This document shows, piece after piece, positions 44,644 to 56,000 of a stretch of DNA of 64,000 nt. Source of the stretch: Psilocybe cubensis (taxonomy: Eukaryota). The notes below the pieces were generated by a model. The model was given only the letters and a program-made list of their open reading frames with translations. It was not told the origin of the DNA and made no database searches. The stretch lies in NCBI GenBank assembly GCA_017499595.2, contig CM038998.1:4216001-4280000 (forward strand), given 5' to 3'. The position numbers were made by a program, and so were the translations under genes. Every line of letters begins with the position of its first letter. Within the stretch, counting starts at the first letter, position 1.

Positions 44644-45519
44644 ATGAAACGGATAGAACGCGTACCCTCTATGCTCCAATCTCTGCCCGTGGAGATTCTC
44701 CTGCATGTTTTCTCGTTTCTTGAACTCCAGCCATACTTAATTTCCCATGGCGTCTGTAAAGACTGGCAGCGTCTCCTACCATTGACTGAACTTCATCCAA
44801 TTCGCCGCCGCATGCTAGAGCTTTACCAAAAGATTATATCTACTCCGAATTTTGAAAAGACGCGCCCTTGGACGCTGGATAACATGCAACCGTTTGATAG
44901 GCAGACTTATATTGATGGACTCCTCACACAGTACCCCGTCATTCCTGCAGAATTCCGAATGTGGATTCTCGAATGGCCTAACTGCTTAGCCATTGCGTGC
45001 ACATGGCCCTCCCTTCCTGTTCTTCGTTATAGATGGCACGCCAATCAACGAAGACCCGGCGTCAATTGGCTGGGATACGTTCCTACCAACCCTCACCTGT
45101 CTGCAGTAGTTTATAGAAGTGGCACTCCGGATGTGAAGGTTATTCCTGCTCTCTTAATATGGAGAGAAAACTCCATCACTAATTGGCTGATATTTGACCA
45201 AGACGAACCCGACCTTTTTGGTAGGATATATGCCACCGATTTCATGGAAGGCGAAAGCTCAGCAGTGATACCATATCCTGGGCAAGATCCATGGTATACC
45301 AACGAGCCGTATCCAGATTGGATTGCCTACATGGAGTATCTTTGGGAATGTACTGTCAGCGCATTGGAAATAAACCCAACATACGAGCTTCCTGACCGAC
45401 CACCAATTCTACCAGTTGTAGTTTGCTACAATATGGCATGGGATACCACTCTTCCTACCTTTCCATGGGCACAACGTGATGACGTTTTGAGGCTGGCACG
45501 CAATCCGCAAATCCATTAA
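44644..45519 (+). CDS. F-box + putative SUKH(SMI1/KNR4)-like protein, copy 1
   Basis: F-box LQSLPVEILLHVFSFL....L....GVCKDWQRL; C-terminal IPAEFRMWI...ALLIW..WLIFD...FGRIY..D...YPDWIAYME. First ATG 44644; tatata at ~44481. F-box is secure, SUKH is inferred. Confidence 0.8.
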   Translation: MKRIERVPSMLQSLPVEILLHVFSFLELQPYLISHGVCKDWQRLLPLTELHPIRRRMLELYQKIISTPNFEKTRPWTLDNMQPFDRQTYIDGLLTQYPVIPAEFRMWILEWPNCLAIACTWPSLPVLRYRWHANQRRPGVNWLGYVPTNPHLSAVVYRSGTPDVKVIPALLIWRENSITNWLIFDQDEPDLFGRIYATDFMEGESSAVIPYPGQDPWYTNEPYPDWIAYMEYLWECTVSALEINPTYELPDRPPILPVVVCYNMAWDTTLPTFPWAQRDDVLRLARNPQIH

Positions 45520-45883
45520 ACCCCACGTATCCTTGTGGCCTACTTTAACTTCCAACGAGTAAGTCTGGATCACTTAGGATGCGAGTAACTTTGTTAAACC
45601 GCCTGATAATTACAGTCGATCCGAACCATAGCCATAAGATTAATGTTTGGATTGATTATACCTCCGGCCTCCCGAACAGGCAAGGTTTACATTATGGTCA
45701 TTATTCAACGAATGTGAATTATCGTTATCGAAGTACGAGTTGGTCAAACAGTGGCTTGATGTGTGATTACTGTTGAACGCAGAATTGCTATCGCTGGGTC
45801 TTTACAAACATGCGTCGCAATCAAGCCGCACTTAGACTTCAAGCTATGACCACTGCTTGGACAACTGTGATAAACGGTTGTAG

Positions 45884-45922
45884 TCATACTGCTGAGCGTG
45901 AGAGCTGAGTACTGGAAATTAA
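45884..45922 (-). pseudogene. 3'-terminal remnant of the deaminase-like gene (unit 1)
   Basis: Translates as LISSTQLSRSAV* versus LISSTQRSAV* at the end of the intact gene (51824). Confidence 0.6.
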
Positions 45923-51823: not shown

Positions 51824-52992
51824 TCACACTGCTGAACGCTGAGTACTGGAAATTAGGCATGCTCTCACCGTTTCTTCTGACTGGTAGATATCCGGGCCTA
51901 GGGCCCGGGAGGCATCGACAATTCGCAAGCCAAAGATTTCGTTGCACCTACCTTTAGCACGCATACTGCAATTGGTGCAGAATGGTATTGCCGGCCGGCC
52001 TTCGGACTTGCTTAAAGTAAGCGACACAATCTCAATCCTTTTGGTTTTTTGACCTTTGCGAAGAAAATCCCGAGCAAACTGCATAATAAACGGCCAAGCA
52101 ATGACCTCGGCACACTGAGTTGGTCTTCGAGTGGTCTGGCTGGTCTCCGTGAGATGAAACTCTGTGGGTTGATTCTCTGTGAGATGAGTGCCTACATAAA
52201 TCAATGCTTGTCGGTAGAGGACGTTCATATCCCGCTCTGCGGGTGTGAGCCGTGGTTCAACGGCGCGGAGATGGGCCGTCTGTCCGTAATGGACAGGGAT
52301 CTCATCCTTCATATTTGCCTCAACGATGCAGAAGGAGCTGTAAGGGAGACTTTCGAGACTTCCACGGTTGGCAATATGTATGTCCATATATCGCTCTAGA
52401 GAGTTTCGTAAGTCCTGAAGTCGGTCGGGCCCTGTCGATCTGATAGCTGGTTGGTGAAGACTGTACGCCACAGAACCCATAATCTCGAGGTAGAACTTGT
52501 TGTCAGAAGGAGACTCCCTCTCTGACAGAAGCTGCCGGAAGTACGAGGGTATCAATCCTTGCTTACTGTGGTGATGAAAGATGCGTTCGAGATAGTCGGT
52601 CTCTATGGGTATAGTTGAATCAAGATCAGAGGGAAGCTCGACTATAATCAATACTCATCAACTGGATTTCTTAAGAATAATATGGTGTATACTTACGTCG
52701 TGGATATTTGTCCGGATGAAGAAGAGTTTTGTTCAAGTTTTTCTGTAATTCCTTCACATTGAGGAGGATAGCGCTAAATCGTTGCTCGCGGAGCCTCTCG
52801 ACGGCCTCAGCTGACAGAAATCAGAAAAACGAATTTATTGGATGAATGTTGCATACTTTTGGGAACTTTGAGCTTCTTGGGCTTTGGTGGGTTTTGGACA
52901 GGGACACCAGTATCGTAATCATCATCGTTTTCCAACATAATCGGAGAAAAAAACTCGGACAGTGGTGTCGATGGAGGTGGAAGTTCAGACAT
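51824..52992 (-). CDS. Putative zinc-dependent nucleic-acid/nucleotide deaminase (CAE...PxCxxC; possibly YwqJ-like), 3 exons, ~355 aa
   Basis: Introns 52811-52856 (GTATGC..TCAG) and 52642-52696 (GTAAGT..ATAG) give a stop-free 1068-nt CDS. CAE at 52106-52114, a beta-strand IEIVSLTL, and PFCTNC at 51968-51985. Confidence 0.65.
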
Positions 52993-54981
52993 TTGGAAAA
53001 GATGTAAGCGAAGCTAGGACTTGTGCATCCTAGAGCAAACGCATAGCGCTTAAATAAATTCAGGAGATGGCATATGTGAGGCAACTACGTGTTTTGTTTA
53101 TCTAGATGGATCTGACAGATGGTAAGTTTTTGAAACGCCACCCAAGGATTTGCTGCTGGAGCACAATAATGGGCCCAACACGTTCATATGTTCGTTGTCT
53201 TATGGAGTAATCAGATGTTCTACGTCCAGAAGGCGAGAGCACAGGTGTATAAAACGAGGTCAGCTTGATAATTGCGACCGGTCGGGGATTCTCGCTTTTT
53301 GCGGCCCGGGGAAAGCTCCCAACGGGCGCTTAAAGATGAACAGATATGAAAGGTTTTAGGTAATGATACCGGCATATGTATCTTCAAAGGGTAGTATACG
53401 CATCGAATGAATGATAAGGCCTGCCTATGTAGTACGGAGACAGGAATCGGTCGTAAATGTCTTTTTTACTTGTTATACGTGCCAGATTTCACCAACGCCC
53501 ACAAATCAGCCTCATTCTAAACACGTTCCTGATGTAGTATAAATAAGTTGACGAGTTCGCGACTTTTAGTTTTATTCCACCAGATTTCGGCATAATCCTG
53601 ACGTTGTGTGTAATCCCTGCACCACTGAGTCTCAGGTGCTTCTGTGCTCCATAATAGCACATCAGATGAAGAGCCGAGTCATATCTCGGGGTGGTTTTCT
53701 CAAAGCGACTGTACATGCAAGGCGACTTATTGGATCTCGAAGCAAAGATAATCAGTGATGAGAATGAGGAGAAACATGATGTTAATCGCCTCTGCCTCTT
53801 CATTGATTCCGGCATTCTGAGAAGTAAAAAGTATTCCAGCATTCCAAATGCACAGCTCAAGTCGAATGTCGACCTGAAGCTTCAATCTTGTCGCAGCGGG
53901 GACCTTCAGATTGGTTAATGGTCGCCATGCTTGCACGGTACACATGAGCCGCCTGGTGCGACTGCAGAGAGGCAGCGAGGCTGTACAAAAGCTATTATTT
54001 TTTTTATTTCACAGGATAAGATAGGGCTCGCTTCGTAGTTTTACCTGTTGGTTGATGTAGAATCGAGTCACTGGAGCTGTAGGATATTTCAAAATAAAAC
54101 AGATCTTCTAATCGGGCAAAGATCCTTTGAATATACGGGCGTGCGTTTTGGACCAGGTAGTGAGTTGCTTGAAGGAGACACTGTCAGTCGCCACTCGGTT
54201 AAATCCACCTTCGTCCCGTTTGCGCCAAGCCTGCCTACATCCTTCAGTGGCGTTTTCCTTCTTCTCGAGGCCCTAGACCCAGTTCTCACTAAAAATATTC
54301 GCTACCCTCATGGTTAATGACTCGAGTCGAAGTCCTCCGTGTTGGTCATTTGTGTCTCGCCTGGAAACATCATGGTAGTCAGAAGTGAGCATCCTATCTA
54401 TTTTAGTTTTTCTCATACCTGTTGTCCTATGATTACACGTTTCCTATACCTTTTTGGTGAGGAGGTTCCTTATCCTGAAATGTAATGTAATTGGATTAGT
54501 AGCTTGGGGGGACGAAGACTCGCGCCGAATCTGGGGCATGCGGTGGAAGACAAACCTCGCTTGCTAATGTGCTGCGTATAACTCTCATCACCCAGCCGGT
54601 AGTGTTTCAAGCTGATTGCTCTCACCACTGTAGTGGAGCAAATTATTACAAAGTGAAATCGACGAGCATCGGAACCGGAGCGAGGAACGAATATTATCAG
54701 GTACAAGTCACATTATGGCAAACGCGACACAAATCGTACACAAATTACAAAGCATTACGACAGCATTAAAATTAATTATAACCAACACGAGACCAGCGTA
54801 TGAGTGCCGCAGAAACTACACAAGAATTGCGATATACCGAGTTGCTGAAATGATTAACTGTGTGATACTATGCAGGACGTTTCCATCACTGGCAAATAAT
54901 ATTTAACCGACATGGTTCAGAACAACCGCAAATATCAGGCGAATTAACGATAACTCGCATCCTGAATGAGGTGATCAAGAC

Positions 54982-56000
54982 TTACGAGTCTTTGGAAGTT
55001 AAGTTAGTAAGGCACGAGAGTGGAAGCTGGTGATCCCATGCCAGCCTCAAGACATCATTTCGCAAACTCCATGGAAACGTAGGAAGTGAACCATCCCATG
55101 TTTGATCGAATCCAACCACGACAGGTAGAACGAGTGGTTCGTCAGGAAGTTGGTGTAATAGATTTAGTTCCAATGCACTGACAGTACATTCCCATAGATA
55201 TTCCATATAAGCAATCCAGTCTGGATACGGCTCGTTTGTACGCCGCGGATCTTGCCCAGGATAGGGTATCACTGCAGAGGATTCCATTTCCATGAAATCG
55301 GTGACATATACCCTACCAAAAAGGTCGGGTTCGTCTTGGTCAAATATCAGCCAGTTAGTGACGACGTGCTCTCTCCATATCAAGAGAGCAGGTATAACCT
55401 TCACGTCCGGGGTGTCACTTCTATAAACTACTGTAGATAGGTGAGGGCAGGTAGGAGCGTATCCCAACCAATTAACGCCAAGTCTTCGTTGATGATTTTC
55501 CGATCCAGACCAAACGACAGGGAGCGAGGGCCATGTGCATCTAATAGCAAGGCAGTTAGGCCACTCGAGGATCCACATTTGGAATTCTGCAGGAATGACA
55601 GGATATTGGGCAAGGAGTGTGTTGATGTATGTCTTTCTATCAAACGGTTGCATATTCTCCAGCGTCCATGGGCGCGTCATTTCATGATTCGGGGTAGATA
55701 TAATCCTGTGGTAAAGTTCCAGCATGCGGCGGCGGATTGGATGAAGTTCAGTCAGTGGTGGGAGACGCTGCCAGTCTTTAGACACGGCATGGGAAATTAT
55801 GTAGTGCTTGAGTTCAAGAAACGAAAAAATATGCAGGAGAATCTCGATGGGTAGAGACTGAAGTACTGAAGTGTAACAGGGATATGTGAGGTGCTTGGTG
55901 GTTCGACGGGCTAGTGGTCGCGAAAGAGCAAACGGCGAGCAAGACCCACAGAATTGCGAATACCCTGGAAGATATTGAACATTGAATAGATCTGTCCCAT
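54982..56000 (-). pseudogene. F-box + putative SUKH-like protein, copy 5 (inverted); ancestral N-terminal frame broken
   Basis: Ancestral start ATG 56000 (MGQIYSM.., as in copy 4) meets TAG at 55911-55913, and an 8-bp duplication (actgaagt x2, 55857-55872) shifts the frame. A 373-aa ORF from ATG 56103 in the other frame still covers the whole F-box and C-terminal domain. Confidence 0.65.

Follow-up and report, generated by a model that had tools for sequence, protein, structure and literature searches.

Which neighbour, if any, gives meaning to a cluster of F-box proteins that carry a domain resembling bacterial immunity proteins? We addressed this question in a 64,000-nt stretch of Psilocybe cubensis DNA (the window; 4.216-4.280 Mb of the 4.68-Mb contig C1 in a 46.6-Mb assembly), where the original prediction had placed five tandem F-box proteins with a SUKH (SMI1/KNR4) domain directly downstream of an RHS toxin gene. 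The fold call is upheld, unlike the RHS argument, and what makes the locus interesting is a different gene. The recurring partner of the arrays is a deaminase-like gene, not the RHS gene, and, as a pattern of linkage, the ancestral unit is a convergent pair in which an F-box-SUKH gene faces a YwqJ-like zinc deaminase gene.

The convergent pair of F-box-SUKH and deaminase-like genes

The genes concerned are the following:

44644-45519, plus strand: F-box-SUKH copy 1 (291 residues from the ATG at 44644; open reading frame from 44545)
46136-47155, plus strand: F-box-SUKH copy 2 (open reading frame, Pfam F-box, alignment to copy 4)
47904-48920, plus strand: F-box-SUKH copy 3 (an inserted element supplies the last ~33 residues)
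50428-51414, plus strand: F-box-SUKH copy 4 (328 residues; F-box 48-82, predicted SUKH-fold domain about 85-285; faces the intact deaminase-like gene)
51824-52938, minus strand: YwqJ-like zinc-deaminase candidate (exons 52938-52857, 52810-52697 and 52641-51824; 337 residues)
54982-56103, minus strand: F-box-SUKH copy 5 (inverted; 5' leader frameshifted relative to copy 4)

The five intact-looking open reading frames form one family (69-80% identity to copy 4), and each encodes an F-box, but only copies 1-4 are in tandem. Copy 5 is inverted, lies 3.5 kb from copy 4 and starts (56103) just beyond position 56000, where the array had been taken to end; its ATG equivalent to the copy 4 start is out of frame with the F-box. 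The array had also been described without a gene between copies 4 and 5, so that the separate minus-strand gene at 51824-52938 was overlooked.

Genome searches with three different deaminase homologues returned the same two loci each time. At both, the deaminase-like gene lies tail-to-tail with a receptor gene, 409 bp from the stop of copy 4 in the window and about 240 bp from the stop of another receptor copy at C1:4.426 Mb. The same convergent arrangement is present in a metagenome sample, on its contigs L040 and L042. The pair thus recurs in another fungus, whose deaminase is about 30% identical and whose F-box-SUKH proteins are 40-44% identical to those of P. cubensis. This tight, conserved linkage covers 2 of the 2 genomic deaminases and one further fungus, that is, only three independent pairs; these belong to three subclades with receptor identity of 40-47%, saturated synonymous sites in the deaminases and unrelated flanks.

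The spacer DNA that follows copy 4 is matched after copies 1, 2 and 3, where it runs into remnants of the deaminase 3' end:

45828-45921, minus strand: weak decayed stub, deaminase 3' end and flank (94 nt align with 51775-51855 at 75.5%; the last exon accounts for just 38 nt, E 0.004)
47160-47648, minus strand: duplicated spacer ending in a weak deaminase 3' stub (489 nt align with 51419-51855 at 72.8%; 38 nt belong to the last exon, E 0.004)
49820-50187, minus strand: decayed deaminase-like pseudogene fragment after copy 3 (CAE region and 3' end; tblastn E 3e-6; by blastn, 88% over 58 nt and 77% over 56 nt)

A second array likewise contains deaminase stubs after two copies (E 2e-4 and 1e-9). 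Among the 15 genomic receptor copies, 2 have an intact partner, 5 have a stub (2 of these weak) and 8 have nothing; among the 45 metagenome receptor loci, 24 include at least 1 kb of downstream sequence, and a partner is found in 2 of the 24. The deaminase was always seen with a receptor, whereas receptors often occur without a deaminase; this asymmetry, which rests on the three independent pairs, is as a toxin-antidote pair predicts.

The model of the deaminase-like gene predicts three exons with GT-AG introns, consistent phases and 337 codons with no internal stop. Alignment of four homologous proteins reveals 41 invariant columns, including H121, C180-A-E182, C225 and C228. Table 1 of PMC3239186 defines the YwqJ clade by [CH]xE, a conserved insert histidine and CxxC, and gives basidiomycetes among the hosts and SUKH3 as the immunity protein. 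All three sequence features are present in each of the four proteins, although the Gly that lies two residues ahead of CxE is not conserved. In the ESM Atlas, the closest family-bearing cluster is YwqJ-deaminase (PF14431; score 0.85), 11% of whose members carry PF14431, and the ten best family-bearing hits share this family or its clan. Neither PF14431 nor any other deaminase profile hit the protein in searches of Pfam, NCBIfam and PDB profiles. We consider it quite likely that the 337-residue protein is a deaminase. Unnamed ascomycete clusters of 225-259 residues score higher in the Atlas (0.93-0.94) with 51827-52651 (minus strand). The lysine-rich end of the predicted first exon (52857-52890, minus strand) presumably resembles a nuclear localisation signal.

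In the RNA-type run X14, where contigs show presence only, none covers the last deaminase exon, and no RNA data set was listed with 49500-56500. A predicted complex of the copy 4 SUKH region, the deaminase-like protein and zinc, modelled without alignments, scored 0.00 and counts neither way.

The putative receptors and the fold of their second domain

The F-box profile PF00646 matches 5 of the 5 copies at 20.6-24.5 bits (Pfam cut-off 20.5), 4 of the 5 reach the PF12937 cut-off, and the family profile matches the F-boxes of Skp2, Fbw7 and Cdc4. The motifs predicted to follow the F-box are present in the stated order in all five copies; the exact spellings originally quoted match copies 1 and 2, while copy 4 has DRQTYIDGLLRLY and FGRVYVND. 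The 5' ends of copies 2 and 3 hardly differ (46140-46345 versus 47908-48113), whereas over the remaining length copies 1 and 2 form the closest pair, a pattern suggestive of gene conversion or unequal crossing over.

The SUKH assignment is borne out by the fold but is not shown by the sequence. The AlphaFold model places two helices, a meander and a terminal helix at the predicted motif positions, and thus contains the SUKH core, namely, helices with a split sheet of hairpin and meander, and a terminal helix. In a wide structure search, ranks 1-7 are occupied by FBXO3, YobK, 2ICG, 2PAG, Syd, 3D5P and Knr4, each aligned over 117-158 residues, with a gap below them before unrelated chains; all seven are named as SUKH members in PMC3113570. 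A second method, applied to the ESM Atlas's own model, agrees. Foldseek did not add to this result: there was no match at E<=0.001 against the PDB (FBXO3 appeared at E 0.7-0.8) or against viral models. At E<=10, no SMI1_KNR4 or SUKH-3/4/5/6 profile matched any of 28 or of 86 family members, in HMMER searches whose filters drop weak matches; Pfam, NCBIfam and PDB-sequence profile searches produced no SUKH match either, and comparison of the family with the genome's own Smi1/Knr4 by hhalign gave 1.1%. This canonical Smi1/Knr4 gene is retained on another contig. That the post-F-box region is instead an unrelated alpha+beta fold with a similar meander is very improbable, given that seven mutually divergent SUKH structures fill the top ranks and that both methods concur. 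We conclude from the structural models that it is a divergent SUKH-fold domain. No ApaG (DUF525) domain was matched in the 86 members, and the proteins end about 45 residues past the SUKH helix.

Copy 3 lost its normal tail to an inserted element:

48818-49413, no strand assigned: miniature inverted-repeat transposable element (MITE)-like insertion (596 bp; 30-bp terminal inverted repeats starting TA; high read depth, multi-copy)

This element is absent from contigs or reads in 3 of 4 runs and is polymorphic between strains. At 49678-49820, three DNA runs show stacked loose ends and a high depth, the signs of a second short multi-copy element. Position 52347, in the intact deaminase-like gene, is joined to 50124, in the decayed fragment, by eight reads of run X11, with 26 letters between them, which suggests a haplotype with a different array structure. 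A 532-nt contig of run X7 over the deaminase region has 25 other letters and 9 gap letters, compared with 86 differences in 7410 for the RHS gene and 8 in 2758 for the spacer that follows. Thus, the deaminase region looks more variable in other strains than its surroundings, although the X7 contig could be a paralogue absent from the assembly.

The RHS neighbour and the spread of the family

The gene upstream of the array was proposed as the toxin that the array would neutralise:

37543-44194, plus strand: SpvB/FG-GAP/RHS (YD-shell) gene (spliced, annotated 2062 residues; Gly/Ala-rich hydrophobic C-terminal region; Pfam hits on exons)

The gene is real, and its product is identical to a database protein (P0175, UniRef, Psilocybe cubensis). 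Seven GT-AG joints listed or implied in run X14 show that it is spliced and transcribed. It is the single RHS match in the genome and ends at 44194, 450 bp ahead of copy 1 on the same strand; moreover, SPVB and RHS are among the YwqJ toxin delivery routes in PMC3239186. These observations favour an array that confers immunity to the SpvB-RHS protein or, more broadly, a single conflict locus made of RHS, deaminase and SUKH genes. The neighbour, however, fails to recur elsewhere. With 15 RHS proteins as tblastn queries, no RHS-like hit was obtained in 14 stretches (140 kb) around the other 10 receptor copies, one of which forms the second intact receptor-deaminase pair, or in the 45 metagenome loci (255 kb in total, many loci short). 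The deaminase has a spliced gene of its own, on the opposite strand. The RHS tail exon has no Pfam hit, and in place of a variable enzymatic toxin domain there is a Gly/Ala-rich hydrophobic tail of 234-253 residues, similar in all three fungal RHS homologues; it contains three hydrophobic 19-mers, no CxxC and none of the deaminase motifs. As weak evidence from a protein database search, no Psilocybe cyanescens RHS protein is among the 15 hits, even though the arrays of that species are the sister clade of the window copies. We therefore regard an RHS-directed array as improbable and the RHS gene as probably a neighbour, not a partner. Fungal homologues among the 15 hits come from Crassisporium funariophilum and Amanita thiersii only, and identity to bacterial proteins is about 21-27%; the intron-bearing gene is likely an old transfer from bacteria, and its conserved hydrophobic tail may insert into membranes.

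The rest of the window is fungal in content (a UBR1-type ligase, Rtf2 and further F-box genes in the Pfam scan). Two F-box genes of other types lie at 13592-15565 and 34902-36335, both on the minus strand; the region is F-box-rich.

Local expansion of the receptors had been considered unusual. It is not: the P. cubensis genome contains 20 matches to the family, 15 of them long, and 14 of the 15 form four groups at 4.26-4.57 Mb of C1, the other being on contig C12; one long copy has a stop ahead of its tail. In P. cyanescens, family members carry consecutive locus tags (8990-8993 and 9504-9509), and the array members form the sister clade of the window copies (support 0.96). Tandem expansion is therefore typical of the family. 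In ten pairs of window copies, the ratio of nonsynonymous to synonymous substitution rates (dN/dS) is 0.17-0.51, indicating that the receptors are under purifying selection; no positive selection was seen in means by region, which range from 0.11 to 0.62 with the maximum at residues 161-200 of the window copies. Two receptors of the second array (L025 and L026; C1:4.42-4.44 Mb) contain, ahead of the last SUKH helix, an acidic insertion 16-40 residues long, which the window copies lack. Two metagenome contigs carry NACHT-type (NPHP3_N) genes at a distance of 2-6 kb from family members (L037:5704-6975 and L043:9499-10494).

The family spans Agaricales and Boletales, with named members in Psilocybe, Hypholoma, Agrocybe, Cyclocybe, Flammula, Mycena, Roridomyces, Pleurotus and Hygrophoropsis, and comprises 312 representatives (clusters at 50% identity, E<=0.001), some weak ones of which may match mainly through the F-box. 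This breadth, the lack of a partner at most loci and the position of the arrays in the final 420 kb of C1, surrounded by further F-box genes and transposons, are what would be expected of a general, expanded family of SCF (Skp1-cullin-F-box) receptors. Such receptors would bind host or foreign substrates through their SUKH domain, as in immune-like surveillance or the recognition of incoming bacterial toxins, with the deaminase-like gene an old hitchhiking neighbour that has no functional tie to them; substrate recognition was indeed proposed for fungal F-box-SUKH proteins in PMC3113570. We take this account seriously, as having perhaps a third of the total probability. It does not readily explain why the two genes have stayed neighbours in the same relative orientation across a synonymous divergence that has reached saturation while the flanking genes differ, why the deaminase occurs nowhere else in the P. 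cubensis genome, or why the partner is of the very type that bacterial SUKH proteins neutralise.

A putative toxin-antidote module and its relatives

The best explanation, to which we give an about even chance, combines a deaminase toxin with an SCF-coupled SUKH antidote and a set of orphan antidotes; toxicity and binding are inferred. F-boxes recruit substrates to SCF. The five receptors would accordingly be substrate receptors of this ubiquitin ligase, docking on Skp1 as expected from their family, and the module would have its origin in a bacterial pair of deaminase toxin and SUKH immunity protein. By mutating or editing nucleic acid, the deaminase may harm a cell, nucleus or spore that lacks the antidote; protection would come from its capture by the SUKH domain and, through the F-box, its delivery to the proteasome. 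Tandem duplication would have copied the whole unit, after which most deaminase copies decayed and the receptors were kept by purifying selection. The partnerless receptors would be orphan antidotes, which may cover variant toxins, and the RHS gene a bystander. A more far-reaching version, which we put forward tentatively and as less probable than not, is that a bacterial toxin-SUKH immunity pair persists in linked form in mushrooms, with stoichiometric binding rewired to SCF-mediated destruction, as a selfish or self/non-self element acting in spore killing, nuclear competition in the dikaryon or hyphal incompatibility, the arrays being libraries of orphan antidotes.

Bacterial SUKH proteins confer immunity to toxins that act as nucleases or deaminases (PMC3113570, PMC3482391). 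The mushroom pair joins the same two partner types as the YwqJ-clade toxins with SUKH3 immunity proteins and shares CxE, the insert histidine and CxxC (PMC3239186). Unlike the bacterial systems, it consists of convergent, spliced eukaryotic genes rather than an operon, its deaminase has neither a delivery domain nor a Pfam hit, and its immunity-type domain carries an F-box. Where PMC3239186 notes YwqJ-like genes in mushrooms, it suggests a self/non-self role and gives no link to an immunity gene. Pattern scans of prokaryote genomes with the receptor and deaminase alignments, a viral contig scan and plasmid tblastn revealed no relatives and no bacterial donor.

Absence of ApaG had also been thought unusual, but ApaG-less fungal fusions are already published. 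Zhang et al. (2011; PMC3113570) reported F-box-SUKH-4 fusions from filamentous ascomycetes, with an example from Aspergillus oryzae, and proposed a role as substrate receptor. These resemble the present family in being fungal, with an N-terminal F-box, a SUKH domain and no ApaG mentioned in the sections concerned, which also describe no expansion and no linked deaminase. The present family differs in being basidiomycete, without a PF14435 match and with an ESM Atlas feature score of only 0.76 to the ascomycete SUKH-4/F-box cluster. A separate SUKH-3 transfer into Aspergillaceae is described in PMC11898892. Compared with FBXO3/SKIP16 (F-box-SUKH-ApaG), the family lacks ApaG, shows 7% identity, and is multi-copy and fast-evolving, not single-copy. 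A functional parallel comes from klmt-1/kss-1 type elements of Caenorhabditis tropicalis, in which F-box antidotes degrade linked toxins through SCF (PMC12680543). There, too, the antidotes come from clustered, fast-evolving F-box families, and the module duplicates as a unit; the toxins, however, originated from a host tRNA synthetase, none of the antidotes is a SUKH protein, and drive was shown by crosses, whereas the mushroom pair is known from sequence.

We did not find the basidiomycete family or its linked deaminase described in a literature search that covered neither most subscription papers nor the supplements of PMC3113570 and PMC3239186; these supplements may list basidiomycete F-box-SUKH proteins or the gene neighbours of Laccaria YwqJ, which bears on novelty. 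For the known fungal F-box-SUKH fusions, the conserved deaminase neighbour provides a candidate substrate, and the question of what they bind becomes testable with two genes in yeast. Should the pair be non-functional, the outcome would be more modest: a new F-box family of basidiomycetes whose second domain has a SUKH fold. If the proposed module is real, a bacterial toxin-immunity pair would have been kept together in a eukaryote with degradation added, providing a molecular candidate for genetic conflict or self-recognition in Agaricomycetes and a function for more than 300 clusters now labelled only "F-box domain protein".

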